64,000 nucleotides of DNA from an uncultured delta proteobacterium (GTDB lineage: Bacteria; Desulfobacterota; Desulfuromonadia; Desulfuromonadales; BM103), in contig CAVQRZ010000014.1 in NCBI GenBank assembly GCA_963715335.1, positions 128,001 to 192,000 of the forward strand, written 5' to 3'. A model generated the notes under the pieces. That model was not told the DNA's origin. It made no database searches and saw only the letters and a list, made by a program, of their open reading frames with translations. Position 1 is the first letter of the stretch, and every line of letters begins with the position of its first letter. This document shows, in pieces, positions 1,704 through 25,060 of this stretch. The position numbers and the translations under genes were made by a program.

Positions 1704-2453
1704 ATGATGGGTTTTGTAGATAAGGTTGTCATCGTCACAGGAGCCGCATCAGGCATGGGCGCAGCGACGGCACGAGAATTCAACGCTGCCGGTGCCAGGG
1801 TCCTGATTGTCGATCGCAACGCTGAACTGGCTGCGCAAGTTGCTTCGGAGATCTCTAGCGATCCGCCTCTGGTCGGGGATGTCAGTGACTCCGCATTCTG
1901 CAAACAGGCCGTCGCTACGGCCGTGGAACGCCACGGCCGCCTCGATATCCTGGTTAACGCCGCCGGCATCATCGTGCGTGCTGATGGCCCCGGGACCACA
2001 GATGAACAATGGCAACGGATCATGAACGTCAATGTCAACGGCGTCTTCTACATGAGCCGCGCCGCTGTCGAGATCATGCGAGGCCAGGGCTCCGGGGCGA
2101 TCGTCAATTTCGGTTCGATCTGGGGCGAAGTCGGTGCCGCAGGGGTTATGGCTTATTGTGCTTCAAAGGGTGCCGTGCACCAGATCACCCGCGCCATGGC
2201 CCTCGACCACGTCAAGGACGGCATCCGCATCAACGCGGTCTGCCCCGGGGAGGTCGACACACCGATGCTGACTTCGGAGCGTTCTGCTCCGGTGACTGCG
2301 GAGATGATGAAGGCCCTTGCCGAGAGTGTACCGATGGGACGCCTGGCCGCTCCGGTCGAGATTGCCCGGGTTGTGCTTTTTCTCTCCTCTGATGCCGCCA
2401 GCTACATGACCGGTGCGATGGTCAATGTTGATGCCGGTTTCACCGCCAGGTAG
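1704..2453 (+). CDS. Classical SDR-family NAD(P)-dependent oxidoreductase
   Basis: [12 protein letters not shown], catalytic [23 protein letters not shown]. Confidence 0.92.
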
Positions 2454-2460
2454 GTGCCCT

Positions 2461-3462
2461 GTGGAATATCGCCTGCTCGGCAGGACCGGCGTCAAGGTCG
2501 CCCCTCTTTGTCTCGGTTCCGACAACTTCGCAAATCCTACCCCTGAAGCAGAATCGGTCGCGATCATCGAGCGGGCTATCGATGCCGGCATCAACCTGAT
2601 CGATACCAGCAACAGTTATGCAAAAGGTGAAAGTGAACGCATTATCGGCCGGGCCCTGGCTGCCAGCGGTCGTCGCGACCAGGTGCTGGTGGCCACCAAG
2701 GCCCACTACCCGACCGGCCCCGGACCGAATGATCGCGGCAACTCACGGCTGCACCTGATGAAGGCCTGTGAAGATTCCCTGAAACGCCTGCAGGTTGATT
2801 GCATCGACCTGTTTCAGCTGCATCGGCCTTCCTTCGAGTTGCCGATCGAGGAAACGATGAGTGCACTCACTGACCTGGTTCGCCAGGGCAAGGTGCGTTA
2901 TGTCGGCTGCTCGACCACCCCGGCCTGGAAGGCGATGGAGTCGATCATGGTCAGCGAATTAAAGGGGTACGTGCGTTTTGCCTCGGAACAGCCGCCCTAC
3001 AACCTGCTGGATCGCCGGATAGAGAACGAAATGGTGCCGTTTTGCCGGGAGTACCAGCTGGCAATCTTCCCCTGGTCGCCGCTCGCCATGGGAATCCTGG
3101 CCGGACGCTATGCCGATGCAGACAAAACCCCGCAAGAATCCAGGGCTGCACTGCGAGGCGGAATCTACGCGGAGCGGGTCACCGCAAGAGGCATCGAGGT
3201 CGGCAACCGGTTCGTTCAGCTGGCCAGGGACCGCGGCATCTCCCCGGCGCAACTGGCGGTCCTCTGGGTCAAAGACCAGCCGGGCATCACCGCGCCGCTG
3301 ATCGGCCCGCGCACGTCGGAGCAACTGGAGCATTTTCTGCCGGTTATGGAGATGCAGCTTGACGATCAGGCCCGTGCAGCGTGCGACGCACTGGTTCCAC
3401 CGGGCAGCGCCGTTGCGGATTTTCACAATTCCGCGCCATGGATGAAGATGCAGATTCTCTGA
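2461..3462 (+). CDS. Aldo/keto reductase
   Basis: [55 protein letters not shown] start chosen just after the SDR stop. Confidence 0.9.
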
Positions 3463-3593
3463 CCTGCATCCTCTCCTGACTGACCCGCCCGAGCGCGAGC
3501 CCTCTTTGCGCCGCTTTACCTTTGCAACCGGTTTTCATCACCTGGCAGGATATCTGCCGTGACCTGAAGGAACCTCCTCGTGGAGTGTTGAAT

Positions 3594-5159
3594 ATGAGCA
3601 GTCTTTCCCCCAGTATCTTCAATGACGTGATCGGACCCGTGATGAGAGGCCCATCGAGTTCGCACTGTGCGGCTGCTCTGCGAATCGGCCTGATTGCCAG
3701 GGACCTGATGCAGGGTGTTGTCGATGATGTCCTGGTTGAATGTGATGCGCAAGGATCACTGGCGCGGACATTTGACAGCCAGGGCAGCGACATCGGTCTG
3801 TGGGGCGGCCTGTTGGGTTGGGATGCGACCAATGATCGTCTCGCCCAGTCAGGGCAGGTTCTGCGCGCCGCGGGCGTGACCACCAAGGTGCGAATCGGTG
3901 AGTTCGGTGACATCCACCCGAATACCTACCGGCTGACTCTGAAAAACAGCAAGGAAACGCGCAAGCTGGTGGCGATCTCCACCGGTGGTGGCATGATTGA
4001 GGTCCTCTCGATTGATGATGTGCCGATCACCATCCTTGGCGACCAGTATGAAACCCTGATCTTGCTCGACCAGGCAGGTATGGGAGTACTGACTCTGCTG
4101 GAACGTCACCTGGCCGAAGACAAGATCAAACTCAACAGTCATGCCGGGGTCACTATCGTGCAAATAAGGGGCGAGGTCGATACCGAAAAACTGTTGGCGC
4201 TATTGAAAGGGCAGGCCGGGCCGCCGGTCGTCAGGACGATTGGGCCGGTGATGCCGGTCCTTGCCATGGAACAGGAGCTGCTGCCGTTTTTGACTTGCCA
4301 GGAGATGCTGGAATATAACGCGCAGGCTTGCCTGTCGCTCTGGCAGCTGGCGGTAAAATACGAGAGTGCCCGTGGCGGAATGGCTGAGGCCGAAGTCTTT
4401 GAGAGGATGCGCGAGATTGCCGGGGTTATGCGTCGCGCCATAGATGTCGGGCTCGCCGGGACTGAATATGATGACCGCATTCTCGGTTGGCAGTCCGGCA
4501 GGTACAAGGATTTGATGGAACGGGGAGCGCTGCTTGATGCAGGGGTCCTGAATGCCGTGATCCTGGCTGTGACGGCCACTATGGAATGCAAGAGCGCCAT
4601 GGGCCTGGTGGTTGCCGCGCCGACCGCAGGTTCCTGCGGGGTTTTGCCGGGGACCTGCCTGGCAACGGCTGAGTTTCTCGGGCTTGACGAAGATGACGCG
4701 GTCAAAGCCTTGCTTGCGGCAGGGATGATTGGTGTTTTTATTGCGAGGGGCGCCACTTTCTCGGCTGAAATAGGCGGTTGTCAGGCTGAGTGTGGCTCCG
4801 CTTCCGGCATGTCTGCGGCAGGGCTGGTAACCCTGGCGGGAGGCAGCCTGGAACAGGCCATTGCGGCGGCTTCCATGGCTTTGCAGTCCAGCCTCGGCAT
4901 GATCTGCGACCCGATTGCCAATCGGGTCGAGGCTCCCTGCCTCGGCAAAAACACCATGGCCGCGGCCAACGCACTCACCTCGGCGAATATGGCGCTGGCC
5001 GGATTCGACCCTCTGATTCCATTTGAAGAGGTCCTGGTTGCCATGGACCAGGTCGGCAGGAGCCTGCCCCATGCCTTGCGTTGTACCGGCCTGGGTGGGC
5101 TGTCGGTCACCAAGGCTTCCCGGGAGATTGAGGAGAGGTTGAAGCAAGCGAGAAAATAA
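3594..5159 (+). CDS. Fe-S L-serine dehydratase-family protein, fused beta and alpha subunits
   Basis: Beta domain GPVMRGPSSSH and STGGG; alpha domain VAAPTAGSCG, GGCQAECG, GMICDP, EAPC, LRCTGLGGL; GGAG RBS before ATG 3594. Confidence 0.88.
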   Translation: MSSLSPSIFNDVIGPVMRGPSSSHCAAALRIGLIARDLMQGVVDDVLVECDAQGSLARTFDSQGSDIGLWGGLLGWDATNDRLAQSGQVLRAAGVTTKVRIGEFGDIHPNTYRLTLKNSKETRKLVAISTGGGMIEVLSIDDVPITILGDQYETLILLDQAGMGVLTLLERHLAEDKIKLNSHAGVTIVQIRGEVDTEKLLALLKGQAGPPVVRTIGPVMPVLAMEQELLPFLTCQEMLEYNAQACLSLWQLAVKYESARGGMAEAEVFERMREIAGVMRRAIDVGLAGTEYDDRILGWQSGRYKDLMERGALLDAGVLNAVILAVTATMECKSAMGLVVAAPTAGSCGVLPGTCLATAEFLGLDEDDAVKALLAAGMIGVFIARGATFSAEIGGCQAECGSASGMSAAGLVTLAGGSLEQAIAAASMALQSSLGMICDPIANRVEAPCLGKNTMAAANALTSANMALAGFDPLIPFEEVLVAMDQVGRSLPHALRCTGLGGLSVTKASREIEERLKQARK

Positions 5160-5277: not shown

Positions 5278-6240
5278 ATGAAAATAAGAATGCTCGCCGC
5301 CGCCGATGTTAAGGCGGCTTTGCCGATGCCGAAGGCGATTGAGGCGATGAAGCAGGCCTATGTGCAATTTTCCACCGGTCGGTCAACGGTCCCCCTGCGG
5401 ACCCATGTGCAGACGGAAAAGGGTGTAAGCCTGCTGATGCCGGCCTACCTGCATGACAGCCGGAACCTCGGCGTCAAGATTATTTCCATCTACGCAGACA
5501 ACCCGAAACGGAACCTGCCGACAATCTCTGCGACGGTCATGGTCCTCGACCCCGAGACCGGTTTCCCGCTGGCACTGATGGATGGCGGCAGCCTGACTGC
5601 GATTCGTACCGGCGCCGGTGGTGGCGCTGCGGCCGACGTCCTGGCCCGCAAGGACGCCCGGAACGTCGCTCTGTTCGGTGCCGGGGTACAGGCGCGCACG
5701 CAATTGCAGGCAGTGCTCGCGGTTCGGGGCATTACCGAGGTCAGTATCCTTGATCATTTTGAGGCGGCCGCGAAACGTCTGGCCGATGAGGTTGCCACCT
5801 GGCCAAACGCGCCGAAAGTGATCCTTGGCCGAACCCCGGCTGAAGCCGTGCAGGTCGCTGATATTGTCCTCACAGCAACCACCTCGCCAGTGCCCCTTTT
5901 TGACGGCAACGATCTCAGGCCGGGCACGCATATTACCGGTATCGGGACCTTCACCCCCGACAAACGTGAGATCGATGAGGTCGCCGTAGGCCGCGCCAGG
6001 ATAATCGTTGATTCTTATGAAGCCTGCCTTGAAGAGGCCGGTGATATCATTATCCCGAACGCTGTGATCGACGCGGAACTCGGTGAAGTCCTCAATGGCG
6101 ACAAGCCCGGGCGTGAAAACGATGAGCAAATCACCTTCTTCAAGTCGGTCGGGATTGCCGTGCAGGACACCATGGCCGCGGCCCTGGTGTTCGCCGCCGC
6201 CAAAGCACAGGGGTTGGGCACTGAGGTTGATTTCTCCTGA
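5278..6240 (+). CDS. Ornithine cyclodeaminase/mu-crystallin family protein; probable Delta1-pyrroline-2-carboxylate reductase
   Basis: LTAIRTGA, FGAGVQA, EAGD, FKSVGIAVQD. The specific function is inferred from the adjacent Cys/Thr proline-racemase-family gene. Confidence 0.85.
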   Translation: MKIRMLAAADVKAALPMPKAIEAMKQAYVQFSTGRSTVPLRTHVQTEKGVSLLMPAYLHDSRNLGVKIISIYADNPKRNLPTISATVMVLDPETGFPLALMDGGSLTAIRTGAGGGAAADVLARKDARNVALFGAGVQARTQLQAVLAVRGITEVSILDHFEAAAKRLADEVATWPNAPKVILGRTPAEAVQVADIVLTATTSPVPLFDGNDLRPGTHITGIGTFTPDKREIDEVAVGRARIIVDSYEACLEEAGDIIIPNAVIDAELGEVLNGDKPGRENDEQITFFKSVGIAVQDTMAAALVFAAAKAQGLGTEVDFS

Positions 6241-6278
6241 TTTGATCTACACAGGGTTCGGCGGTGGAGGTACTGGCA

Positions 6279-7304
6279 ATGAAAAACTGGAGAGCGCCTG
6301 GTGACTGGCAGAAAATAACCACGATTGATGCACACACGGCAGGCGAACCCTTTCGTGTGGTCACCTCGGGGTTTCCGCCCCTGGCTGGCGAAACGATTTT
6401 GGCGAAGCGCCGCTTCGTCAAGGAGAAGTACGACCACCTGCGCACGGCCCTGATGCTGGAACCGCGCGGCCATGCCGATATGTACGGTTGTCTCATCACC
6501 CCGCCGGTCACTGAAAGTGCCGATTTTGGTGTCCTGTTCATGCACAACGAAGGCTTCAGTCCCATGTGCGGACACGGTATTATTGCCATGACCACGGTCG
6601 CCCTCGAGTGCGGTATGGTCGCCATGCAGGCTCCGCAGACGATTCTGCGCATCGATACGCCGGCCGGACTGGTGACTGCCTGTGCACACGTTGAGCAAGA
6701 CCGCGTCCACAGCGTCTCGTTTCAGAATGTCCCCTCTTTCGTGATCGGCCTTGACCAGGTCGTGGCTGTGCCAGGGCGTGGCCAGGTTCGTTACGACCTG
6801 GCTTTCGGTGGCGGCTTTTATGCCTATGTCAATGCCGCCGATGTCGGCCTGAAAGTTTCTCCGGATAACCTGCATGCCCTGATCGACACGGGGATGGAGA
6901 TCAAGCGTGCAGTTATGGCAAGCCGGACGATTCCACATCCCTTCGAGCAGGACTTGAGCTTTCTCTATGGCACAATCTTTGTCGATGAGCCGAAGGGTGA
7001 GGGCGCGCATTCGAGGAATGTCTGTATCTTCGCCGAGGGCGAGGTCGATCGTAGCCCGACCGGAACCGGGGTCAGCGGCCGACTGGCGATCCACCATGCG
7101 CGTGGTGAAATCGGGATTGGCGACGCGATCACCATAGAGAGCATTATCGGCAGCTCTTTTCGCTGCGTTGTCGCCGGGGAGACGACGTTTGGTCCGCACC
7201 GGGCGATTCTCCCCGAGGTCGAAGGCAGCGCCTATATCACCGGTCGACATGAGTTCCTGATCGATCCGAACGATCCCTTGAAGGACGGTTTTGTGATGCG
7301 TTAG
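6279..7304 (+). CDS. Proline racemase superfamily protein, Cys/Thr type; probable trans-3-hydroxy-L-proline dehydratase
   Basis: DAHTAGEP, EPRGHADMYG, SPMCGH, and DRSPTGTG with Thr in place of the second catalytic Cys (DRSPCGTG in racemases/epimerases). Confidence 0.88.
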   Translation: MKNWRAPGDWQKITTIDAHTAGEPFRVVTSGFPPLAGETILAKRRFVKEKYDHLRTALMLEPRGHADMYGCLITPPVTESADFGVLFMHNEGFSPMCGHGIIAMTTVALECGMVAMQAPQTILRIDTPAGLVTACAHVEQDRVHSVSFQNVPSFVIGLDQVVAVPGRGQVRYDLAFGGGFYAYVNAADVGLKVSPDNLHALIDTGMEIKRAVMASRTIPHPFEQDLSFLYGTIFVDEPKGEGAHSRNVCIFAEGEVDRSPTGTGVSGRLAIHHARGEIGIGDAITIESIIGSSFRCVVAGETTFGPHRAILPEVEGSAYITGRHEFLIDPNDPLKDGFVMR

Positions 7305-7330
7305 CAGGAATGCTTGCGAGGGGCCACAGA

Positions 7331-8782
7331 ATGACGCAAGAAGAGATTTCGTCACATGACAAAACCCTGAAACTGGAGCTCCTGGCCCGTGAGCTCGACG
7401 CCATCATCGAGTCATCGTCAGACGGTCTGTTTGTCTGTGACGGTTTCGGGCGTATCATCCACATGAACCCTGCCTCGGCCAGGATTAACCATGCCTCTCC
7501 GGAGCAGGTCATCGGTCGTGATTACCTGGATGTGGCCAGGGATGGCTATGTCATCCTGCCGTCCGCCGCCCTCGAAGCGATCAAGAAACGCGAAATTGTC
7601 AGTCTGTTGCAGGAAAATCGTTACGGCTTGAAGCTGATCTCCACGGCGACCCCGGTTTTCGATGATCACGGCAACGTCATCCGGGTCGTGGTCAGCGAGC
7701 GCGATATCACCGAAATTGATCGCCTGCAAAGAGAACTGGAAGTGCAGCAGGCGATCGGCGACCAATTCCGTCACCAGGTCCTGGAACTTCAGCAGGAGTA
7801 TCTTGATTCTCATCCGGTGGTCGCTAAAAGTCCCGGCATGATCAAGGCGCTAACCCAGGCGCTAAAGCTGAGCGGAGTTGATTCAACGGTGCTGCTGCTC
7901 GGTGAGTCCGGGGTGGGCAAGGGGTTGATTGCCGACCTGATTCACAGCCATTCGCGCCGATCGGACCATCTTCTGATCAAGATCAATTGTGGTGCCATCC
8001 CGGAGACCCTGATTGAGGCTGAACTGTTTGGCTATGAGAAAGGGGCCTTCACCGGCGCCGTGACCAGCAAGCCGGGACAGCTGGAACTGGCCGATGGCGG
8101 GACCCTGTTCCTTGATGAGGTTGCCGAACTGCCGCTTGCCTCACAAGTCAAGCTGCTGCGCTTTATGGAGGACGGCCAGGTGACGCGTCTGGGCGGGACA
8201 GACAGCAGAAAGATGGATGTAAGAATTATTGCCGCAACCAATCGTGATCTGGAAAAGCGGGTCGAAGAAAAGCTTTTCCGGCTGGACCTGTACTACCGTC
8301 TCAGCGTTATCCCCCTGACGATCCCGGCCCTGCGTGAGCGCAAGGAGTGTCTCCTGCCACTGATCCGGGCCTTTGTCGACCGTTTTGCCGAACGCTCCGC
8401 AAAGCCAAAACGTTTGACCCGTGCAGCCATTGATCGCCTGGCAAGCTATCCCTTCCCGGGCAATGTCCGTGAACTTATGAATATCTGTGAGAGGTTGGTA
8501 GTGATGACGGATACGGAGATGATCGATGTCAGTGATCTGCCGCGAGCCGTTGTGATGGGCAGTGTGGACGGGTGTTCTGCCGCCGCAGCAAGCTGGCCTG
8601 AGATCATGTCGATGGGACAGATTCTCGAAAGTGTGGAACGTGCTGTGCTTATCGAGGCCAGCAGGAGTTGTCGCAGTCAGCATGAGATCGCGGCGTCGCT
8701 TGACATGAGCCAGCCGACGGTTGCCCGCAAACTACGGAAGTACGGCATGACCATCGGTCAACAGGTGAAGGTCTCTAAGTAA
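7331..8782 (+). CDS. PAS-domain sigma-54 enhancer-binding transcriptional activator (PrdR/RocR-like architecture)
   Basis: N-terminal PAS, GESGVGK, intact GAFTGA, FLDEV, PGNVREL and a C-terminal HTH. Alternative start at 7310. Confidence 0.92.
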
Positions 8783-8790
8783 GGGAGAGC

Positions 8791-9132
8791 GTGATGAAAG
8801 AAATCTCCTGGGATGAATTTGCGGTCGTAGAGTTGCGGGTCGGTACGATTGTCGGGGTCGAGGACTTTCCGGAAGCGCGTAACCCTGCCTACAAGGTCAA
8901 AGTTGACTTCGGCCCCGAGCTGGGAGTTAAGAAGGCGAGCGCCCAGATAACCGCGCACTATTCGAAAGAAGAATTGCTGGGCAGACAGATTGTCGGCGTG
9001 GTGAATCTCCCGTCGAAGCGGATTGGGCCGATGTCCTCCGATTTTTTGCTCACAGGTTTTTATCGCGAAGATAAATCAGTTGTCATTGCAATCCCGGAGC
9101 GTGCAGTGCCGAATGGTGCCAAACTGGGGTAA
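8791..9132 (+). CDS. csaA: CsaA/Trbp111-type tRNA-binding protein and export chaperone
   Basis: [34 protein letters not shown]. Confidence 0.88.
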
Positions 9133-9208
9133 ACCTTTGTGCTTTTGAGGTAGACTATAGAAGGCATCCCCAGGCTCGGGGTGTTCCTTAGCGTATTCCG
9201 GGGGATAC

Positions 9209-10096
9209 ATGTCGAAACCTCATGATGTTGCCGCAAAGCGGCCCTCGCCGATTCTCTGGCTGGTTTTGGGCGCTGTCTGCATCAGCTTTGCGCCGATTTT
9301 TATCAGGCTGGCTAATGTCTCCCCCGACATTGCCGGCTTTTACAGGCTGTTTTTCGCCGGCCTGTCTTTGTTTGTCATTCTCTGTCTGCGTGGTGCCCTG
9401 CAGCGGTTGCCGCGTGGTCCGGCATTACTCCTGGTGGCGAGCGGGTCCTTCCTGGCGATAGATTTCATGTGCTGGCATCGCAGTATCCATCTGGTCGGCC
9501 CGGGGTTTTCGACCCTCCTGGCGAACTTCCAGGTTTTTTTTACCGCACTCTTCGCCTGGCTGCTTTTCCGCGAAAAAGTCACCCGGATGTTCGTTGTGGC
9601 CATCTTCATGGCGTTCATCGGCCTGACCTTTATAACCGGACTGGATTGGCAGGGGTTGTCCTCCGAGGTCAGGTCCGGAATCGTTTTCGGGCTGCTCGCG
9701 GCGATTTGCTATTCCGGCTACCTGCTGTTTCTGAAGGAGTCGATGAAGGAGAATGTTGTCAGCGGCATGTCTGTCATGCTCGTGGTCTCGGTTTCCGGGT
9801 CCATCGTGCTCGGTGTGGTCAGCCTGGCGACGGGCGCATCCTTCGCGATACCAGATGGCGGCTCCCTGCTGGCCCTGCTTGGTGTCGGCGTACTGAGTAC
9901 GACGGTCGGCTGGTCGATTATCTCTGCCGCTGTCAGGCATGTGCCGGCAACGGTCGCCGGACTGGTCCTGTTGCTGCAACCCGCGCTGGCTTTTGTCTGG
10001 GATGTCATGATTTTTGACCGCCCGACCGGCGGCTCCGAAATCTTTGGCATCCTGTTGATCCTGTTGGCGATATATTTAGGCTCTTACCGGAAATAA
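9209..10096 (+). CDS. DMT/EamA family transporter
   Basis: About 10 hydrophobic segments in two EamA repeats (LFAWLLFREK; LLLQPALA). Confidence 0.88.
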   Translation: MSKPHDVAAKRPSPILWLVLGAVCISFAPIFIRLANVSPDIAGFYRLFFAGLSLFVILCLRGALQRLPRGPALLLVASGSFLAIDFMCWHRSIHLVGPGFSTLLANFQVFFTALFAWLLFREKVTRMFVVAIFMAFIGLTFITGLDWQGLSSEVRSGIVFGLLAAICYSGYLLFLKESMKENVVSGMSVMLVVSVSGSIVLGVVSLATGASFAIPDGGSLLALLGVGVLSTTVGWSIISAAVRHVPATVAGLVLLLQPALAFVWDVMIFDRPTGGSEIFGILLILLAIYLGSYRK

Positions 10097-10116
10097 GAGG
10101 GTTTCATGCGACATTT

Positions 10117-10151
10117 TATTCGTTTCAGAATATTTTATTCATTATTGAATA
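10117..10151. promoter_or_regulatory. Tandem palindromic operators TATTC-N6-GAATA (putative activator UAS for hypD)
   Basis: TATTCgtttcaGAATA at 10117-10132 and TATTCattattGAATA at 10136-10151, about 95 bp upstream of a sigma-54 promoter. Confidence 0.65.
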
Positions 10152-10245
10152 ATAAACGCTTGCTGGTTGTCGTTTCCTCTGCCTCATCCTTCTAATAAAC
10201 CTTTTTATTTCAGGTGCTTACAAAATTCACCCGACCGCTCCTGCT

Positions 10246-10261
10246 TGGTACCCTTTTTGCT
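10246..10261 (+). promoter_or_regulatory. Sigma-54 (-24/-12) promoter of hypD
   Basis: TGGTAC-CCTTT-TTGCT with exact GG-N10-GC spacing. Confidence 0.75.
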
Positions 10262-10426
10262 CTGTATCTAATCAGTGTTGTTTGTCTTTTGACTGTCTTT
10301 GTTGGGTTGTCAGCTATGGGTCGCTTGTCTTTGGTCCGCTGCCCGCAGTACAATCAAGAGTGAGAATTCAAAAGCTCCACGGATTAGCCGGGTTGTTGGG
10401 CCAGAAGGTAAGGATTGGTCTTGATC

Positions 10427-12877
10427 ATGGAAAGTGAACTGAAAGTTGTGCCGCAAAGGAAAGCTGCTGCCGAGGGTAACTTTTACCCGGAGCATAAAGC
10501 GGCTATCGGCCCGGGAATGAACGCGCGCGTCCAGCGCCTGCGCAAGCTGAGCGTGGAGGCGGAACCGAGCCTGTCGATCGAACGCGCCCTTCACGAAACG
10601 GCCTTCTACAAGGAAAATTACGGCAAGCACTCGGTTCCGATGTTGAGGGCGCTGAACTTTCTCGATCACTGCCAGAAAAAAACTCTGTACATCGGAGATG
10701 ATGAGCTGATTGTCGCCGAGCGCGGCCCAAGGCCGAAGGCTGTGCCGACTTTCCCCGAGCTGACCTGCCACAGTGTCGAAGATTTCCAAGTCCTCAATAC
10801 CCGCGACCAGCAGCGCTACACCATCAGTGATGAGGATATTGCGACCTACGCGCGCGAAGTGATCCCTTACTGGCAGGGCAAGACCATTCGCGAACGAATC
10901 TTCAGCCATGTCCCCGATGAATGGCGGGCTGCCTACGAGGCCGGGCTCTTTACCGAGTTCATGGAGCAGCGTGCACCGGGGCACACCGCCCTGGATGGCC
11001 AGATCTATCGTAAAGGGATGCTCGATTTCAAAAAGCAGATTGCTGATGAACTGGCCGCGCTGGACTTCCTCAATGACCCGGAGGCCACCGACAAGGCAGA
11101 AGAACTCAAGGCAATGGGTGTCTCTTGCGATGCCGTGATCGTTTTCGCCGAGCGTCACGCCGATCTGGCTGAAGAGCTGATGGCCGCTGCAAGTGACCCG
11201 CAGCGGATTGCCGAGTTGCGCTCCATTGCCGAAGTCTGCCGCTGGGTTCCCGCCAACGCGCCGCGCACTTTTCACGAAGCGATCCAGATGTACTGGTTCG
11301 TGCATCTCGGCACGATCACCGAACTGAATGGCTGGGACGCCATGAACCCCGGGCATTTCGATCAGCATCTTGCTCCCTTCTACGAAGCAGAGCTTGCCGC
11401 AGGGACCTTGACCCGCGAACGGGCCAAGGAGTTGCTCAGCTGTTTCTGGATCAAGGTCAACAACCATCCGGCGCCGCCCAAGGTGGGGATCACGGCCCGT
11501 GAGAGCGGCACCTACAACGACTTCACCAATATCAACATTGGTGGCGTAACGAGTGACGGCAGGGACGGCGTCAGCGAGGTGTCCTACCTCATGCTCGAGG
11601 TGATTGAAGAGCTGCATGTCCTGCAGCCCGGCAACTCGGTACACATCAGCAGCAAGACTCCCGACCGTTTCTTGAAGGCCGCTTGCAAGGTGATTCGCCA
11701 GGGGCATGGCTACCCCTCGGTGTTCAATCCCGACGTCTATATCGTTGAGATGCTGCGCCAGGGTAAGTCGCTCAAGGACGCCCGTGAGGGCGGCTGCAGC
11801 GGCTGTATCGAGGTGGGCGCTTTTGGCAAGGAAGCATTCATCCTGACCGGTTACCTCAACGTGCCGAAAATTCTCGAAGTCACCCTGAACAACGGCGTCG
11901 ACCCGGTGACGGGCAAGGTTGCCGGTATTGCAACCGGGGACCCGAGAGGGTTTGAAAGCTACGATGAACTCTACGAGGCGTTTAAACGACAGCTCAACTT
12001 CATCGTCGACACCAAGGTGCGGGTGAGCAATTACATCGACCGGATGTTTGCCAAGTATGCGCCGGCGCCTTTCCTGTCGGTGGTCATAGAAGATTGCATC
12101 AGCAAGGGCCGGGATTATTACGACGGTGGCCCACGTTACAATACCAACTACATTCAGTGCACCGGTCTGGCGACCACGACAGACAGCCTTGCCGTGCTCA
12201 AGAAGCACGTTTTCGAGGGGAAGTCTTTCAGTATGGAGCGGGTCCTCGAAGCTGTGGGCAAGAACTTCGAAGGTGAGGAATTCATACGCCAGACGGTGCT
12301 CAACAAGACACCCTTTTTCGGTAATGATGACGACTATGCCGACGACATCGCCCTTAAGGTTTACCATGATCTGCTGGCCGCCATCGACGGCAAGCCGAAC
12401 GTCAAGGGCGAGACCTTCCACCTCAACATGCTCTCCACGACCTGCCATATCTACTTCGGCAAGGTGATGGGGGCGACGCCCAATGGACGCCTGGCAGGCA
12501 AGTCGATTTCCGATGGCACGTCTCCCTCGCACGGCGCCGACACCCATGGCCCTTCGGCGGTCATCCGTTCGCTGAGCAAGCTTGACCACACCATGTCCGG
12601 CGGCACTCTGCTCAACCAGCGCTTCCTGCCCAGCCTGCTCAAGCGCGATGAGGATGTTGCCCGGCTTGGCCACTTGATCCGCAGCTACTTTACCCTCGGC
12701 GGCCATCACATCCAGTTCAATATCGTTGACACCGCGACGTTGCAGGCTGCCCAGGAGACCCCCGAAGACTACAAGGACCTGCTGGTGCGCATGGCTGGCT
12801 ACAGTGACTACTTCAACGATATGAATGCAGACCTGCAACAGGAAGTTATCGAGCGGACCGAGAACGAGTCGTTCTGA
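10427..12877 (+). CDS. hypD: Glycyl radical enzyme, trans-4-hydroxy-L-proline dehydratase
   Basis: Motifs matching C. difficile HypD as recalled: FTEFMEQRAPGH, ELNGWDA, PAPPKVGIT..ESGTYNDF, SGCIE (catalytic Cys), LTGY, MLSTTCH, and the glycyl radical loop RMAGYS. Confidence 0.93.
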   Translation: MESELKVVPQRKAAAEGNFYPEHKAAIGPGMNARVQRLRKLSVEAEPSLSIERALHETAFYKENYGKHSVPMLRALNFLDHCQKKTLYIGDDELIVAERGPRPKAVPTFPELTCHSVEDFQVLNTRDQQRYTISDEDIATYAREVIPYWQGKTIRERIFSHVPDEWRAAYEAGLFTEFMEQRAPGHTALDGQIYRKGMLDFKKQIADELAALDFLNDPEATDKAEELKAMGVSCDAVIVFAERHADLAEELMAAASDPQRIAELRSIAEVCRWVPANAPRTFHEAIQMYWFVHLGTITELNGWDAMNPGHFDQHLAPFYEAELAAGTLTRERAKELLSCFWIKVNNHPAPPKVGITARESGTYNDFTNINIGGVTSDGRDGVSEVSYLMLEVIEELHVLQPGNSVHISSKTPDRFLKAACKVIRQGHGYPSVFNPDVYIVEMLRQGKSLKDAREGGCSGCIEVGAFGKEAFILTGYLNVPKILEVTLNNGVDPVTGKVAGIATGDPRGFESYDELYEAFKRQLNFIVDTKVRVSNYIDRMFAKYAPAPFLSVVIEDCISKGRDYYDGGPRYNTNYIQCTGLATTTDSLAVLKKHVFEGKSFSMERVLEAVGKNFEGEEFIRQTVLNKTPFFGNDDDYADDIALKVYHDLLAAIDGKPNVKGETFHLNMLSTTCHIYFGKVMGATPNGRLAGKSISDGTSPSHGADTHGPSAVIRSLSKLDHTMSGGTLLNQRFLPSLLKRDEDVARLGHLIRSYFTLGGHHIQFNIVDTATLQAAQETPEDYKDLLVRMAGYSDYFNDMNADLQQEVIERTENESF

Positions 12878-12878
12878 A

Positions 12879-13787
12879 ATGCAGCAACCGCTCGTATTCG
12901 ATATCAAGCGTTATTCGATCAATGACGGTCCCGGAATCCGTGTCACGATTTTCCTCAAGGGGTGTCCGCTGAATTGCCAGTGGTGCCACAACCCTGAAAG
13001 CATCTCGCCCAGAATTCAAAAGCTCTTTACCGCCAGCAAATGCATCGGCTGCGGAGAATGTTGCCGTGTTTGCCCGGTGCAGGCCTGTACCCTGACCCCC
13101 GGGGGGATCGAGACGGATGAGAAGCTCTGCACCCTCTGCGGCAAGTGCGCGGAGGTCTGTCCGACCCTGGCGACGGAGATGTCCGGGCAGTACCGCTCTA
13201 TTGCAGAACTCATTGAGATCATCGAAAAGGAACGGCCTTTTTTTGAACAGTCGGGTGGCGGGGTGACTTTTTCCGGTGGTGAACCTCTCCTTTACCCTGA
13301 GTTCCTGATTGAGCTTCTCGATGCCTGCGGCAAGAAGAATATTCACAGCGCGATAGATACTTCGGGGTATGTCAAGGGCGAAACCCTGCTCAGGGTCGCC
13401 GGACACACCGACCTTTTCCTTTACGATTTGAAGATAATTGATGCCGAACGGCACAGGCATTTCACCGGCGTTGATAACCGGCTGATCCTGGATAACCTGA
13501 AGATGCTGGCAGAGACGGGCGCGACGATCCAGATACGCATCCCGCTGATCGGCGGTGTGAACGATGATGTGCAAAGCGTCAAGGCCTTCGCCGCCCATGT
13601 CGCCGGTTTGGCCGGCGCAAGCAAAGAGGTCAACCTGCTGCCGTTCCATGATGTTGCCAGGGGGAAGGATCTGAAGCTCGGCCGGAATCGTGATTTGAGC
13701 GCCCTGAAAGAGCCCGGACCGGAGAGCGTTGCCCGCGCCCTGGAAATCTTTGCCGGGTATGGCCTGGCGGCCAGTGTCGGGGGGTAA
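12879..13787 (+). CDS. Glycyl-radical activating enzyme (radical SAM with a 2x[4Fe-4S] ferredoxin insert)
   Basis: DGPGIR, GCPLNCQWCHNPE, CIGCGECCRVCP, CTLCGKCAEVCP, SGGEP; adjacent to hypD. Confidence 0.93.
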   Translation: MQQPLVFDIKRYSINDGPGIRVTIFLKGCPLNCQWCHNPESISPRIQKLFTASKCIGCGECCRVCPVQACTLTPGGIETDEKLCTLCGKCAEVCPTLATEMSGQYRSIAELIEIIEKERPFFEQSGGGVTFSGGEPLLYPEFLIELLDACGKKNIHSAIDTSGYVKGETLLRVAGHTDLFLYDLKIIDAERHRHFTGVDNRLILDNLKMLAETGATIQIRIPLIGGVNDDVQSVKAFAAHVAGLAGASKEVNLLPFHDVARGKDLKLGRNRDLSALKEPGPESVARALEIFAGYGLAASVGG

Positions 13788-13790
13788 GCT

Positions 13791-13843
13791 TATGCATAAT
13801 TGCATACGACTATATCACAAAGAACTCAATGCATATTTGCATA
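13791..13843. promoter_or_regulatory. Paired palindromes (T/A)ATGC-N6-GCATA upstream of pruA
   Basis: TATGCataattGCATA at 13791-13806 and AATGCatatttGCATA at 13828-13843. Confidence 0.55.
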
Positions 13844-14134
13844 TAACCAAATCTTCTCCATAAAAAACAGCAATATATATAGCATTGCCGGCCTTTTTTT
13901 AATGCTCTGTTGCATAATATTTTTTCTGTTAATCGTCTCTGGATCCTCCCGCAACTCCTGTTCAAGAAAAAAACCGTCATCACCCGCTTTCCGGATGTTT
14001 CTCCTCTGAAATATCTTCTCGGCAAAAATCTTTTTAAAAACAGTCTGTTATAATTCTCTTGCGATTTTCAATGAGGTCTTTTTGTCAGGAGCTGCGCGAC
14101 GCATGCACCACTGGTGCAGGTAAACGGGATGGCT

Positions 14135-14150
14135 TGGCATCCTGCTTGCT
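14135..14150 (+). promoter_or_regulatory. Sigma-54 promoter of the pruA-proline dehydrogenase operon
   Basis: TGGCAT-CCTGC-TTGCT with exact spacing, about 70 bp before the ATG. Confidence 0.75.
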
Positions 14151-14222
14151 CTTACAGACGATGAGAATATCTCGGATGCGAATCCTTAAACGGTAAATAA
14201 CCCGGTACGAAAGGTGATCGTC

Positions 14223-15866
14223 ATGAATCTGCTGAATAACGCCATACTCAAGGTTCCGACCCCTGTCAACGAGCCGATCAACAGCTATGCTCCGGGCACG
14301 CCGGAGCGCGCTCTGCTTAAGGCTGCAATCGCTGATATTGCCGCAAAAAAAGTAGAAATTCCCCTGATTATCGGTGGCAAGGATGTCCGCACCGGCAATC
14401 TTGGCAAGGTGGTCATGCCGCATGACCATCAGCATGTCCTCGGCGAATATCACATTGCCGGGGAAAAAGAGATCAGCATGGCGATCGAGGCAGCAATGGC
14501 CGCCAAGCCGGCCTGGGCAGCCCTGCGCTGGGAAGAACGTGCGGCGATCTTTCTCAAGGCGGCTGAGTTGTTGGCCGGCAGGTATCGCCACGTCATGAAT
14601 GCGATCAGCATGCTCTCGACCGGCAAGACGGCCTACCAGGCAGAGATTGATGCGGCCTGCGAGTTGATCGATTTCCTGCGTTTCAATGTCTACTACGCAC
14701 AACAGGTCTATAGCGACCAGCCACTCTATTCACCGACCGGCGTATGGAACTTTGTCCAGCAGCGTCCTCTGGAAGGCTTCATCTTCGCCGTTGCACCGTT
14801 CAACTTCACTGCGATTGCCGGCAACCTGGCAACGTCCCCTGCGATCATGGGCAATACCGTATTCCTCAAGCCGGCATCTTCCTGTGTGTACACGCCGTAC
14901 CTCTTCATGCAGATTCTCAGGGAAGCCGGTCTGCCGGACGGCGTCATCAACTTCGTGCCCGGGCCCGGTTCGATGGTCGGCAAAATGTGTCTCGATCATG
15001 CCGATCTCGGCGGCATTCACTTTACCGGTTCGACCGGAGTCTTTCACCAGATGTGGGCGACGGTCGGCAAGAATATCGCCAGGTACAAGTCGTATCCGCG
15101 GATTGTCGGAGAGACCGGTGGCAAGGACTTCATCGTTGCTCACAAGAGTGCTGATGTCCGCAGGCTGGTTACCGGTATCGTCCGCGGTGCATTCGAATTC
15201 CAGGGGCAGAAGTGCTCGGCGGCTTCGCGTGCTTATATCCCCAAATCGATCTGGGGCGAGGTCCGCAGAGAGCTCGAAGCCGATGTCGCCCGAATCAAGA
15301 TGGGCCCGACCAACGATTTCACAAACTTCTTCAGTGCGGTGATCGACAGCTCGGCCTATGCCACGATCACCGAATATATTGATTACGCCAGGGCTGCCGA
15401 GGATGCCGAAATTATTGCCGGTGGCGGTTACGACGACAGCAAGGGCTACTTCATCGAGCCGACGGTCATCCTGACCAGCAACCCGCACTTCCGTACCCTG
15501 GAGGAGGAGATCTTCGGTCCGGTCATGACCATTTATGTGTACGAGGATGAAAAGTACGAAGAGACGCTCAAGCTCTGCGACGAGACGTCGATCTACGCCC
15601 TGACCGGCGCTGTATTCGCGACCGACAGGAGCGCGGTCAGTCTTGCATTGAGCAGGCTGGAAAACGCCGCCGGCAACTTCTATATCAATGACAAGCCGAC
15701 CGGCGCAGTCGTCGGGCAGCAGCCGTTTGGTGGGGCCCGCGCGTCCGGTACCAATGACAAGGCCGGCTCGTACCTGAACCTGCTCCGCTGGGTCTCGCCG
15801 CGCACGATCAAGGAAACCTTCGATGCGCCTGCAGACTTTGCTTACCCCTTCATGGACGCTGAATAA
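14223..15866 (+). CDS. pruA: Delta1-pyrroline-5-carboxylate (glutamate semialdehyde) dehydrogenase, ALDH4 type
   Basis: PVNEP, EIDAACELIDF, PFNFTAI, FTGST, GETGGKDF, FEFQGQKCSA, YINDKPTGAVVGQQPFGG. Confidence 0.95.
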   Translation: MNLLNNAILKVPTPVNEPINSYAPGTPERALLKAAIADIAAKKVEIPLIIGGKDVRTGNLGKVVMPHDHQHVLGEYHIAGEKEISMAIEAAMAAKPAWAALRWEERAAIFLKAAELLAGRYRHVMNAISMLSTGKTAYQAEIDAACELIDFLRFNVYYAQQVYSDQPLYSPTGVWNFVQQRPLEGFIFAVAPFNFTAIAGNLATSPAIMGNTVFLKPASSCVYTPYLFMQILREAGLPDGVINFVPGPGSMVGKMCLDHADLGGIHFTGSTGVFHQMWATVGKNIARYKSYPRIVGETGGKDFIVAHKSADVRRLVTGIVRGAFEFQGQKCSAASRAYIPKSIWGEVRRELEADVARIKMGPTNDFTNFFSAVIDSSAYATITEYIDYARAAEDAEIIAGGGYDDSKGYFIEPTVILTSNPHFRTLEEEIFGPVMTIYVYEDEKYEETLKLCDETSIYALTGAVFATDRSAVSLALSRLENAAGNFYINDKPTGAVVGQQPFGGARASGTNDKAGSYLNLLRWVSPRTIKETFDAPADFAYPFMDAE

Positions 15867-15924
15867 GGGTGCTTGTGGGTGGCTTGGCCGCCGACATCAA
15901 AGTTGTTCATACATGGAGGAGTGA

Positions 15925-16839
15925 ATGTCAATTTTCAATTTCCTGGTATCAAAAACGATCATGCACGTGCCAGGACCGATTGTTGGGCTCTTTGCCAGAG
16001 GTTATATAGCCGGTGAAGAACTCAAGCATGCGATCGCGGTCACCAGAGACCTGAACAGCAAAGGCATGATGGCGACTATCGATATCCTTGGTGAGTTCAT
16101 TAAAACCAGGGAGGAAGCGACCTATTTCAAGGAGCAGTGCCTGGAAATCCTGAAAGGCATCGACAGGGAAAAGCTGGACGCCAACCTGTCGCTGAAACCG
16201 ACCCAGATGGGTCTGGAACTCGACAAGGAATTCGCTTTTGCCAACATCCGCGAGATCGTGGAACTGGCCGCCGGGTTGAATAATTTCGTGCGCATCGATA
16301 TGGAAGACCATTCATGCACTGACCACACGATCGAGTTCTTCAGGCGCCTGCGCGAGGAGTTCCCCGGGCATGTCGGCGTGGTACTGCAGTCTTACCTGCG
16401 CCGCACTCTCGATGATATTGAAGCCATGAGTGACGGCTTGTTGCACTTCCGCCTGTGCAAAGGGATTTATAACGAGCCGCGCACAGTCGCCTACAAAGAC
16501 ATGACGATCATCAACCGTAGCTTTGTCTGTTGTCTGGACAAGATGTTTGCAAAAGGCGCATACGTTGGTATTGCCACTCACGATGAAAAGCTGATCTTCG
16601 AATCATTGCAGTTGATCAGAAAATATGCATTGAAAAGTGACGATTATGAATTCCAGATGCTGCTCGGAGTTGATCCGGAGTTGCGTGACATGCTGGTTGC
16701 ACAGAAGCACAGGCTTCGTATATACGTGCCGTTCGGCAAGTCCTGGTTGCCGTATTCAAAGCGGCGCCTCAAGGAGAACCCCAGTATCGCCCAGCATGCC
16801 CTGCGACAGATCCTCGGCATGAAATCCAAATCGGTCTGA
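15925..16839 (+). CDS. putB: Monofunctional proline dehydrogenase
   Basis: YIAGE, SLKPTQMG, RIDMED, LQSYLRRT, RLCKGIY, IATHD, EFQMLLG, RIYVPFG, RRLKENP. Confidence 0.93.
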   Translation: MSIFNFLVSKTIMHVPGPIVGLFARGYIAGEELKHAIAVTRDLNSKGMMATIDILGEFIKTREEATYFKEQCLEILKGIDREKLDANLSLKPTQMGLELDKEFAFANIREIVELAAGLNNFVRIDMEDHSCTDHTIEFFRRLREEFPGHVGVVLQSYLRRTLDDIEAMSDGLLHFRLCKGIYNEPRTVAYKDMTIINRSFVCCLDKMFAKGAYVGIATHDEKLIFESLQLIRKYALKSDDYEFQMLLGVDPELRDMLVAQKHRLRIYVPFGKSWLPYSKRRLKENPSIAQHALRQILGMKSKSV

Positions 16840-16895: not shown

Positions 16896-16934
16896 CGTGT
16901 CTGTGAGGGGCTGAACTTGGGAACCTGATTGACT

Positions 16935-18278
16935 ATGACTCGGCAAGCAACTCTGAAGAGTATATATCGTCTCTGGTGGCCGTTGGCCGCAACCTGGTTG
17001 ATGATGGCCATCGAAGGCCCCTTCCTGGCTGCGGTGATTGCCCGAATGGGGGAGAGTGCCGTCAACCTGGCTGCTTACGGGGTGGCCTATGCGTTCGGCC
17101 TGATCACCGAAGCCCCGGTGATCATGCTTCTGAGCGCTGCGACCCGCCTGGGGCGATCACGCACTGATTACCTGCGTCTGCGGGCCTTCTCCATCATCCT
17201 TTGCGGTGCAGTCACCTTGCTGCTCGTATCCCTGCTGTTGCCGCCGGTTTTTAACCCGTTGACATCCACACTCCTGGGCTTGACAGACGATGTTGCCGGC
17301 CATGTGCGGCAGGCTATGTGGCTGCTGCTGCCGTGGCCGGCGGCAATCGGTATGCGGCGCTTCTACCAGGGGGTGCTGATCGCTCACCATCAGCCGGGCA
17401 GGGTGGCCGTCGGCACGACCACGCGACTGTTTGGCATGTCGATAACGGCCGGCCTGCTCTGGTCCTTCAGTAATTTCCCGGGAGCGAGCCTGGGGGCGTG
17501 CGCCCTGAGCGCCGGCGTGGTCCTCGAGGCCTTGTCAACCCGCTGGCTGGCCAGGCAGGCAATCGCAAAATTGCTGCGGGAGCAAGAGGCTCACGCCACC
17601 ATGGCATCTTATACTGCCCTGGGCCGTTTCTATCTGCCCTTGGCCATGACACCGCTGATCGGCCTGAGCGTTCATCCCGTGGTGACCTTCTTTCTTGGCC
17701 ATGGCAACAGACCGCTTGAGTCTCTGGCGATCATGCCGGTCCTCTATTCTCTCACATTCGTCTTTCGTGCTCTGGGCCTTTCCTTTCCGGAGGTAGCCAT
17801 CGCCACATTGAAGGATGGCGGGGAGAATCGTGCGGTCGTCCGACGTTTCGCCCTGTATCTGGCTATCGCTCTGGGGGGTGGTCTGTCCCTGATTGCTTTT
17901 ACCCCCTTGAATATCTTCTGGTATGCGACAGTTTCCGGCCTGCCTGCCGAACTTGTGCGGCTGGCGATTCCGCCACTGCAGATCATGGCGCTCTTCCCGG
18001 CTTTGACGGTCGCAATCGGATACCAGAGGGCGATATTGATCAACAGCGGGAAGACGCTGCCTGTTACTGTCGCAACGGCCATTGAAGCCTGCGGAATTTT
18101 TGTTGTTCTGGCCCTGCTGGTAAGATACTCTCCACTGCCGGGGGTGACGGCCGCAGCAATTGCTTACCTGCTGGGCCGACTCCTGGCGTTGCTGTATCTC
18201 TGCTGGCCATGTGCTGCAGAAAGCAGCGCCGGAAAGAAGGCACTGTGCAAAGCTCAACGAGGAGTGATGGATGAGTAA
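16935..18278 (+). CDS. MOP/MATE-superfamily membrane transporter, ANKH-like
   Basis: About 12 TM segments in two halves (WWPLA... / YLPLA...); the N-terminal ESAVNLAAYGVAYAF resembles the ANKH N-terminus. Confidence 0.65.
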   Translation: MTRQATLKSIYRLWWPLAATWLMMAIEGPFLAAVIARMGESAVNLAAYGVAYAFGLITEAPVIMLLSAATRLGRSRTDYLRLRAFSIILCGAVTLLLVSLLLPPVFNPLTSTLLGLTDDVAGHVRQAMWLLLPWPAAIGMRRFYQGVLIAHHQPGRVAVGTTTRLFGMSITAGLLWSFSNFPGASLGACALSAGVVLEALSTRWLARQAIAKLLREQEAHATMASYTALGRFYLPLAMTPLIGLSVHPVVTFFLGHGNRPLESLAIMPVLYSLTFVFRALGLSFPEVAIATLKDGGENRAVVRRFALYLAIALGGGLSLIAFTPLNIFWYATVSGLPAELVRLAIPPLQIMALFPALTVAIGYQRAILINSGKTLPVTVATAIEACGIFVVLALLVRYSPLPGVTAAAIAYLLGRLLALLYLCWPCAAESSAGKKALCKAQRGVMDE

Positions 18279-22649: not shown

Positions 22650-22665
22650 TGGCACACGTGTTGCT
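22650..22665 (+). promoter_or_regulatory. Sigma-54 promoter
   Basis: TGGCAC-ACGTG-TTGCT, a consensus match. Confidence 0.85.
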
Positions 22666-22811
22666 CTATACCCTTGCTCTATAACGTATTGAGTCAGTCT
22701 GTCGAGTAAATTTTTACGTGATCGATGCTTAATTCATTATGTGAGTCATCGATAAGACCGATGGCGTTATTTAACTCTCCGCTGATGCGGACACAGAGGA
22801 AGGAGTCAGGT

Positions 22812-24044
22812 ATGAAGATGTTGAAACATTTGGTTGTTCCCGTTTTAGCCCTTGCAATGGTTGCGGGCACTTGCGGTGTAACCCAGGCAGAAACGAAAAC
22901 CGTGAAGATCGGTAACATCATCCCCTTGTCAGGGCCCTCGGCATCAGTTGGCATCCAGGGCAAGCAGGCCCGTGAGATGGCCCTGGAGGAAATCAACAGC
23001 TCGGGCGGGATCAAATCTCTCGGTGGCGCCAAACTGGAATTGCTCTTTGCCGATAGCAAAAGTGATCCGACCACCGGTGTTACAGAAGCCGAGCGTATGA
23101 TCAACTCCGAAAAAGTTCATCTGTTAACCGGATGCTGGAATTCAGCCGTTACCTATCCGACCACTCAGGTTGCTGAGCGCTATGGGATTCCCTTCATAGT
23201 GCCTGTATCGGTTCGCGACACCATTACAGAGCGCGGCTTCAAGTATGTTTTCCGCATTGCTGCAAAAGATGGCTGGTGGGCGAAAGACCAGTTCCTGTTT
23301 CTGGACGACATGAAGAAAGAGTTCAATGTTGATGTAAAAAAAGTTGCATTTGTTTATGAAAATGGCACTGTGTAGTCGGTTTTGCTGAGAAGTGGGTGGC
23401 GCTTGCAAAGAGCGTGGATACGAGGTTGTTCTTAACGAGCTTATTTCAGCACCGCCAGCGATCTGACTTCTGTTGTCATCAAGTTGAAGCGTGCAACTCT
23501 GATGTAGTCTTTATGACGTTCAATGCAGCAGATGCGATTCTGCTGATCAACACTATGGACGAAATGCGCGTCAACGTAAAGGCGATCATTTTCAGCGGTG
23601 GCGGTCATGCTGATTTGTTCTTTCTGAAAGCGGACGGGAAAAATGCGATTATCTGTTCGATATCGTAGAGTGGGAAACTGATCTTAATCGTCTCGGTCTC
23701 AAAAGATCAACGATAAGTACAAGAAGCTCTACGGCAGCAACATGAATGGTGAGTCGGTCGATGCATATGCTGCCATGTATGTCATCAAGGAAGCTCTGGA
23801 GAAGGTCGCTTCGATCGATCCGGCTGTATTGCGCAAGATTCTTGCAGAGATCAAGGTCTGTGGTGGCAAAACGGGTATTCTGGCTTACGATTGTGTAGAA
23901 TTTGACGAAACAGGGCAGAATAAAAACGCCAGTCTGGTTATAGTTCAGACTCGTGCTAACGGAGACGAGATGGATCGTATTACCGTCTGGCGAATAATGT
24001 CGTGGGCAGGATACACTTATGTATTAACACAATCAGAGAAGTAG
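22812..24044 (+). CDS. LivJ/K-type ABC substrate-binding protein, broken into several frames in its 3' half
   Basis: Signal peptide, KIGNIIPLSG, EEINSSGGI, YVFRI; homology continues through ORF pieces 23396-23668 and 23742-24044 (FDETGQN). Confidence 0.8.
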
Positions 24045-24165
24045 AAAGCATGATTGTCGCGGGACGGAAAACTTTTTTCGTTCCGCTTCTTTGGTTTCTG
24101 ATGCGGAAATCGAACAGCGGTCATCTCTCTTTTCGGCTGGTTGTTTTGGTATTTAAGGAGTCTGA

Positions 24166-24210
24166 ATGTTAGGCATTATCGAGGCATTGATTAACGGTAT
24201 GTTGATGTTT
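24166..24210 (+). pseudogene. 5' stub of a LivH-type permease
   Basis: AAGGAG RBS, then MLGIIEALINGMLM, after which the sequence degrades into C-free DNA. Confidence 0.55.
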
Positions 24211-24992: not shown

Positions 24993-25060
24993 GAAAGCTT
25001 CGTTTGATTGTAGCCTGATGATGCATTAAGTATCTTATGTTCAGAATAAGGAGAGACCTG

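Follow-up and report, generated by a model that had tools for sequence, protein, structure and literature searches.

Genes of a predicted hydroxyproline and proline cluster

We analyzed a stretch of 64,000 nucleotides (the window) from an uncultured delta proteobacterium of the Desulfuromonadales (assembly GCA_963715335.1, contig CAVQRZ010000014.1, positions 128,001 to 192,000), which carries a gene cluster predicted to serve the utilization of hydroxyproline (Hyp) and proline. The source genome is given as 100% complete. The cluster starts upstream of the window, the regulator and livKHM being located in the stretch directly before it (L033, G000:C14:108001–128000). Their order is proC, a gene for an SH3 protein, a reversed response regulator gene, a PAS/sigma-54 activator, livKHMGF, a short-chain dehydrogenase/reductase (SDR), an aldo-keto reductase (AKR), and a serine-dehydratase-like gene, followed by an ornithine cyclodeaminase (OCD)-family gene, a gene for a Cys/Thr enzyme of the proline-racemase family, a second activator, csaA, eamA, hypD, its activase, pruA, the proline dehydrogenase gene (proDH), and a membrane protein gene. 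A sequence-only reading of the window had named hypD, the activase, the racemase-family enzyme, the OCD/mu-crystallin protein, pruA, and proline dehydrogenase, and all of them are present on the + strand where it had placed them. The GC content across the cluster is 0.55–0.60 and the gene order is syntenic in relatives. The cluster is thus not an artefact of assembly, nor is it an island of foreign composition, and horizontal acquisition was rejected on the latter ground.

The gene at 10415–12877 (+) encodes HypD, trans-4-hydroxy-L-proline dehydratase, the predicted enzyme converting Hyp to Δ1-pyrroline-5-carboxylate (P5C). Its product scored 1183.3 bits against the NCBIfam model NF043068 (cut-off 1100) and aligned without gaps to the Clostridioides difficile structure 6VXC. 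All 10 active-site residues tested are kept (H190, D308, S364, D369, F370, C464, E466, Y480, T675, and G795, that is, the C. difficile numbering +30: H160, D278, S334, D339, F340, C434, E436, Y450, T645, and G765). These are the residues mutated by Backman 2020 (PMC7077986), and most of them are absent from three other glycyl radical enzymes of relatives. The activase gene adjoins hypD (about 12879–13787, +, with a probable ATG start at 12879). Its product lies above the TIGR02494 cut-off, with NF043069 as best family (342.6 bits, below the cut-off of 425), and carries the radical S-adenosylmethionine motif CxxxCxxC and two ferredoxin-type motifs.

HypD was found above its cut-off in 22 of the 61 genomes searched in our sample of relatives, but a phylum-wide search of 251 genomes gave just four, and it thus marks a lineage-specific niche. 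Two separate HypD clades adjoin pruA-proDH, with opposite gene order relative to the activase: G038/G046 (57% identity, activase first) and the main clade (83–96%). This tree, like that of the activators below, is a quick tree without a one-clade test.

PruA, the P5C/glutamate-semialdehyde dehydrogenase, is encoded at 14214–15866 (+; TIGR01236, 778.3 bits, cut-off 613.6) and is followed by a monofunctional FAD proline dehydrogenase (ProDH) at 15925–16839 (+; PF01619, 105 vs. 27). The best solved match of the latter is the Thermus-type PRODH 2EKG/2G37. Its Y267 (RIYVPFG) aligns with the YVPYG tyrosine of 2EKG, and the RRL-E motif is kept. We take this tyrosine column to be that of Escherichia coli Tyr540. 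According to a second-hand statement in PMC3718742, active-site Tyr540 disfavors hydroxyproline. In eight relatives, the pruA-like matches lie inside frames of 889–1063 amino acids, which likely encode fused PutA.

Two genes separated by 23 bp would form a trans-3-Hyp branch. The first, at 5278–6240 (+), encodes the OCD/mu-crystallin protein, whose best solved match is the Δ1-pyrroline-2-carboxylate (Pyr2C) reductase 6T3E (E 9e-75); from matching residue numbers, we take this structure to be LhpI of Thermococcus litoralis. In the 6T3E alignment, read by hand with an offset of 24 and the numbering of PMC4141209, the protein keeps equivalents of R39, K67, R110, D159, and D303 (the Arg-Lys-Arg-Asp catalytic set and the NAD-type Asp). 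At the positions of ornithine cyclodeaminase E56, D228, and K232, it has L52, F225, and K229, and an identity as ornithine cyclodeaminase was rejected on the absence of two of the three cyclization residues (L52 and F225). The protein is thus a predicted, LhpI-like Pyr2C reductase, below NCBIfam equivalog cut-offs. The second gene, at 6264–7304 (+), encodes the Cys/Thr enzyme. It has the proline-racemase fold with Cys102 and Thr266, a catalytic pair described as a class within this fold (PMC4141209). Its closest solved structure is 6R76 (E 1e-141), the characterized trans-3-Hyp dehydratase of T. litoralis (PMC9309405), and its best NCBIfam model is NF045511 (400.7 bits, cut-off 540).

Nine of 60 relatives, all belonging to the same family, have a Cys/Thr enzyme, and in eight of them its gene is on the hypD contig. 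Among the closest 80 of 197 loci found in GTDB genomes, many on short contigs, a HypD-type gene was present in the fetched flanks of seven, four of them from close relatives. The other three belong to Lentisphaeria, Thermodesulfobacteriota, and Phycisphaerales, the last with the C-terminal half of HypD only. The Lentisphaeria record reads activase-hypD-(AHSA1 protein)-Cys/Thr gene (L132:5804–11023), and in the Phycisphaerales record, the HypD half lies directly 5′ of the Cys/Thr gene (L151:8872–11038). Two-subunit AcnX genes are found near the dehydratase gene in 7 of these 80 loci (L055:13766–15450, L099, L103, L104, L106, L107, and L110; small subunit in 7, large in 6). Type IIa AcnX proteins are cis-3-Hyp dehydratases (PMC8184944), and anaerobic lineages likely have a cis-3-Hyp branch at these loci. 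L035, L036, and L037 (G007, G020, and G026) hold additional genes of the racemase family in which the first catalytic residue is Ser and the second Thr; in G026 one such gene lies directly 5′ of pruA.

Predicted sigma-54 promoters and activator sites

Sigma-54 −24/−12 motifs precede livK (L033:16819, the gene starting at L033:16972), hypD (10246–10260, +), and pruA (14135–14149, +), among 45 matches in the whole genome. In relatives, the motif was found before 12 of 16 pruA genes, 8 of 15 hypD genes, and 9 of 17 livK genes, and in 0 of 27 proC rows; most rows without it are operon-internal genes, or one split gene.

Two palindromes accompany these promoters. ATGCA-N4-TGCAT (G-type) precedes pruA and livK, and ATTCA-N4-TGAAT (T-type) precedes hypD. 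The G-type predicted activator sites for pruA-proDH span 13792–13915, where the copies at 13792 and 13829 are perfect (two of the four perfect copies in the genome) and that at 13902 has one mismatch; the livK box is at L033:16606. The predicted site for hypD, at 10137–10150, is one of three perfect T-type copies. When one mismatch is allowed, the genome holds 173 G-type and 67 T-type sites, so an imperfect box counts for little by itself. Across relatives, boxes before pruA were G-type in 11 of 16 cases and T-type in 4, those before hypD T-type in 8 of 15 and G-type in 3, and those before livK G-type in 10 of 17; none was found in the 27 proC rows.

The two PAS/sigma-54 activators (L033:14820–16559 upstream of the window, and 7310–8782, +) are 61% identical and fall into two well-supported groups with the recognition helices NQST (upstream) and SQPT (second, the predicted hypD activator). 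The second gene lies 5 bp behind the Cys/Thr gene and is therefore probably transcribed with the liv/3-Hyp operon. In pruA operons with a single activator, the box type goes with the recognition helix: T-type with SQPT (G037 and G041), G-type with NQST (G012, G018, and G047), and hybrid with SQAT (G046). In G021, where hypD comes after the liv operon, the second activator is missing and neither promoter motif nor box precedes hypD; G028 looks alike. Our analysis thus predicts a cascade of two sigma-54 activators in which the box sequence covaries with a residue of the recognition helix.

A scan for sigma-70 promoters and terminators stayed at chance level (7 vs. 8.0 and 16 vs. 18.8, respectively). 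Five metatranscriptome assemblies contained 8–17% of the words; in each of four of them, livK, hypD, and pruA were partly covered by short near-identical contigs, contigs over the Cys/Thr gene occurred in X1 and X3, and proC had little or no cover. Such contigs can neither rank genes nor prove transcription and were not used as evidence. A third sigma-54 motif, at 22650, precedes the gene for a second Liv-type binding protein, which is in pieces (22650–26308).

Proposed pathway and competing explanations

We consider it probable that this is a sigma-54-type (hydroxy)proline utilization cluster through which trans-4-Hyp, trans-3-Hyp, and proline pass to P5C and on to glutamate, with the nearby proC, outside the predicted regulon, serving proline biosynthesis. 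From gene identities, residues, linkage, and motifs, we infer substrates, flux direction, regulation, and respiration as follows. Import would be carried out by the Liv ATP-binding cassette (ABC) transporter. HypD would convert trans-4-Hyp to P5C in a redox-neutral step. The Cys/Thr enzyme would convert trans-3-Hyp to Pyr2C, which the LhpI-like reductase would turn into L-proline with NAD(P)H being spent, and ProDH would oxidize L-proline to P5C and deliver the electrons to quinone. PruA would then yield glutamate and NADH, glutamate dehydrogenase and the tricarboxylic acid cycle would follow, and the electrons would enter anaerobic respiration. The upstream activator (NQST helix) would act on the G-type boxes before the liv/3-Hyp operon and pruA-proDH, and the second activator (SQPT helix) on the T-type box before hypD; since the second activator is the last gene of the liv/3-Hyp operon, hypD would be activated at a step below the activator of pruA.

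An oxidative fate of P5C is the best reading because hypD is linked to pruA, because both share predicted sigma-54 regulation without proC, and because no PrdA was found. The sequence-only reading had likewise let both routes converge on P5C and its oxidation by PruA, and its enzyme assignments are supported by family matches, residues, and the closest solved structures. Its idea that this fate reverses the redox role described for HypD in clostridia is not new: P5C oxidation had already been proposed by Huang 2018 (PMC6219649), who found few hypD genomes with a neighboring proC and took a dehydrogenase beside hypD to mean P5C oxidation to glutamate. The HypD reaction is redox-neutral, and the difference lies solely in what becomes of P5C. 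The genome encodes 30 open reading frames with at least two CxxCH motifs, 17 of them with at least five, as well as two Glu/Leu/Phe/Val dehydrogenase matches, sdhA, and proBA. In G046, an NAD-glutamate dehydrogenase gene adjoins the cluster.

The earlier claim that the locus has no proC was wrong. That the window holds no P5C reductase is literally true but misleading, since the window edge left proC just outside. Our whole-genome search found a single match (TIGR00112, 291 bits vs. 196.75; G000:C14:119040–119822, gene at L033:10986–11840) on the same strand as hypD. It is located upstream of both the window start (by 8.2 kb) and hypD (by 18.7 kb), with 17 genes, as read from the open reading frames, between proC and hypD. 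The proposed survey of hypD neighborhoods for pruA versus proC covered 25 hypD genomes (22 above the cut-off and 3 with split genes, leaving out the short fragment G022 and the three other glycyl radical enzymes). Here, the distance between pruA and hypD is at most 15 kb in 18 genomes, mostly 1.3–1.8 kb, and pruA is present in 24, partly incomplete in some. proC is present in 23. It is clearly unlinked to hypD in at least three (G011, G046, and G047), and the other genomes without close linkage are interrupted by contig ends. G006, a genome without the cluster, retains prfC-asnS-eamA-proC; the location of proC in that clade is thus a housekeeping one.

Observations on proC, on the 3-Hyp pair, on an orphan selenoprotein, and on the boxes weigh against the oxidative interpretation. 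In 12 of the 25 genomes, proC lies within 31 kb upstream of hypD on the same contig and strand. In G037 and G041, which belong to other families, it directly precedes regulator-pruA-proDH with different upstream neighbors; the proC link is therefore old, and it may be functional. One explanation that builds on this linkage is salvage, in which the main role of HypD and the 3-Hyp pair would be to provide nitrogen, along with proline made by way of ProC and the LhpI-like reductase, for biosynthesis or osmoprotection, and PruA-ProDH would be an older catabolic unit sharing the locus by chance. The occurrence of pruA-proDH-liv without hypD in G041 and G012 and a glycine-betaine-type binding protein in the G012 cluster fit this view. 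We nevertheless regard it as unlikely: the intact proBA allows proline synthesis de novo, neither sigma-54 motif nor box was found at proC in 27 rows whereas hypD and pruA have both, and hypD is far from proC in at least the three genomes named above.

The linkage of proC, proDH, and hypD in several families with different upstream neighbors would also suit a proline-P5C cycle. In this known type of cycle, ProC and ProDH fed by HypD would carry NAD(P)H electrons to the quinone pool. With proC outside the predicted regulon and pruA first in the proDH operon, where it would drain P5C, such a cycle appears very improbable.

On the 3-Hyp side, Pro100 of the Cys/Thr enzyme (6561–6563), two residues before Cys102, is Thr in 78 of the 80 relatives and Pro at one other natural locus; this single-base difference may reflect either true variation or an error. 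The Cys/Thr enzyme, the OCD protein, the activase, and ProDH are all below NCBIfam equivalog cut-offs. The upstream module might serve another amino acid, the serine-dehydratase-like protein acting with the OCD protein (as alanine or imine dehydrogenase), SDR, and AKR, so that the Cys/Thr gene would be accessory and the cluster dual only in part. G026 keeps SDR-AKR-sda-OCD, the OCD-family gene there following the serine-dehydratase-like gene, without a Cys/Thr gene, and an OCD-family gene was found in the fetched flanks of only 11 of the 80 closest Cys/Thr relatives. The Pyr2C reductase family is promiscuous, and T. litoralis LhpI has alanine dehydrogenase side activity and is not induced by 3-Hyp (PMC4141209). 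However, the best solved matches of the two proteins are a characterized dehydratase and reductase, their genes are only 23 bp apart, and in two relatives, two-subunit AcnX, whose type IIa members dehydrate cis-3-Hyp (PMC8184944), is inserted between both genes. We therefore find a module devoted mainly to another substrate rather improbable.

A reductive outlet was sought in the genome, as the sequence-only reading had suggested for prdAB. The PrdA/GrdE family PF09338 matched nothing in this genome and nothing in 24 hypD relatives (positive control, G208), and TIGR04480, for which there was no positive control, gave no PrdA match in the genome. No Cys/Cys racemase and no second racemase were found in the genome either, and Stickland reduction was rejected on the absence of PrdA and this racemase. 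PrdB was represented by an orphan below its cut-off: a frame on contig C5 (L034:7999–8900; G000:C5, about 156000–156900) in which one TGA is read through as selenocysteine, scoring 182 bits with TIGR04483 (cut-off 300) and 78 vs. 65 with TIGR01918. A stable hairpin follows the TGA codon and the genome has a tRNA-Sec gene. This selenoprotein might form the basis of a non-canonical proline reductase leading to 5-aminovalerate, which we judge extremely improbable, as the frame has no PrdA partner, D-proline would lack its racemase, and the gene lies on another contig among unrelated genes.

As to regulation, hybrid boxes precede hypD in G026 and G017, the latter without a second activator there. 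Since the box definitions come from this window and were checked in related genomes, the cascade stays a prediction.

Neighboring genes, known systems, and significance

The 3′ part of the Liv-type ABC amino-acid importer lies at 1–1660 (+; end of livM, livG 171–941, and livF 944–1660). In the basic cluster of relatives, a universal-stress protein gene follows livF (L059:11471–12298 and six homologs) and is absent from the window version. The SDR (1704–2453, +), the AKR (2413–3462, +), and the fused beta-alpha Fe-S L-serine dehydratase-like protein (3522–5159, +; TIGR00718, 232 vs. 243; TIGR00719, 109 vs. 161; paralog on contig C1) co-occur with the 3-Hyp module. As a unit (1704–5159), they accompany the OCD-family gene in G002, G004, G007, G017, G026, and L099 and have their own Liv type (livK identity 86–97%, vs. 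about 30% in clusters without the unit). Human BDH2 gave rise to the idea that the SDR is a 4-oxoproline reductase, which was dropped as there was no such match among five solved structures (E up to 1e-45). Between the second activator and hypD lie a CsaA/tRNA-binding protein gene (8791–9132, +), kept at this place in several relatives, and an EamA/DMT-type transporter gene (9209–10096, +). Downstream of proDH, a multi-pass membrane protein (16929–18278, +), MATE-like by reading and without Pfam or NCBIfam match, is kept behind proDH or hypD in relatives. Further along, the region 22650–26308 looks decayed, with a low-GC stretch (0.38 at 24001–26000) and a fragment of aldehyde ferredoxin oxidoreductase. 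Positions 26556–31162 encode two membrane proteins with sulfatase domains, of which one is EptA-like, and type III polyketide synthase, MMPL transporter, methyltransferase, and FAD monooxygenase-like genes form a single run at 34829–41479.

The HypD/HypD-AE/P5C reductase system of C. difficile (6VXC; PMC7077986, PMC6219649) shares with this locus the HypD family, the tested residues, and the adjacent activase. Energy, amino acids, and carbon/nitrogen are the fates of Hyp named by Backman 2020 (PMC7077986). Here, in contrast to C. difficile, proC is distant and outside the predicted regulon, prdA and racemase are absent, and pruA-proDH follow hypD. In Oscillibacter valericigenes, hypD stands beside a P5C dehydrogenase gene with the same inferred fate, P5C to glutamate (PMC6219649); our host differs in being of Desulfuromonadales type and rich in multiheme cytochromes, with ProDH, the 3-Hyp module, and two sigma-54 activators in addition. 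Thermus-type PRODH with P5CDH (2EKG/2G37) and bifunctional PutA (4NM9 series) perform the same two-step oxidation of proline to glutamate, although, unlike in PutA, the genes here are split and ordered pruA-proDH.

The 3-Hyp route, which the sequence-only reading described for aerobes such as Azospirillum, occurs outside them as well. T. litoralis is an anaerobe. The 3-Hyp pair has been characterized there, beside proline dehydrogenase genes (Watanabe 2014; PMC4141209), and its LhpH and LhpI (6R76 and 6T3E) are the best solved matches of both window proteins. T. litoralis has an archaeal heteromeric ProDH and a Cys/Cys racemase, whereas the window has a monofunctional ProDH, PruA, and a verified HypD; the "putative PFL" genes drawn beside lhpI in that study may encode HypD.

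Our literature search, with most subscription journals outside its coverage, found neither the combined cluster in Desulfuromonadales with its predicted two-activator cascade nor Hyp as an electron donor in Desulfuromonas. The enzymes are known and the route has already been proposed; to these the locus adds a new host lineage, a 3-Hyp branch, and the predicted sigma-54 cascade. No new chemistry is shown.

More tentatively, and as a possibility we would not yet call likely, there may be a family of Desulfuromonadales respiring both Hyp isomers of collagen and extensin as donors for Fe(III), sulfur, or fumarate reduction. Their control would be a sigma-54 cascade of two tiers, where a single change in the recognition helix (NQST, SQPT, or SQAT) switches the operator between the G-type, T-type, and hybrid boxes, and SDR, AKR, and serine-dehydratase-like enzymes may feed in further Hyp isomers. 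If the oxidative interpretation is true, the cluster would offer a testable case of the HypD route proposed by Huang 2018, no test of which turned up in our literature search, and hydroxyproline of animal and plant proteins would be something that metal- and sulfur-reducing bacteria of sediments can use as electron donor. The paired activators, whose boxes covary with them, also form a compact natural system for testing the specificity of sigma-54 activators.

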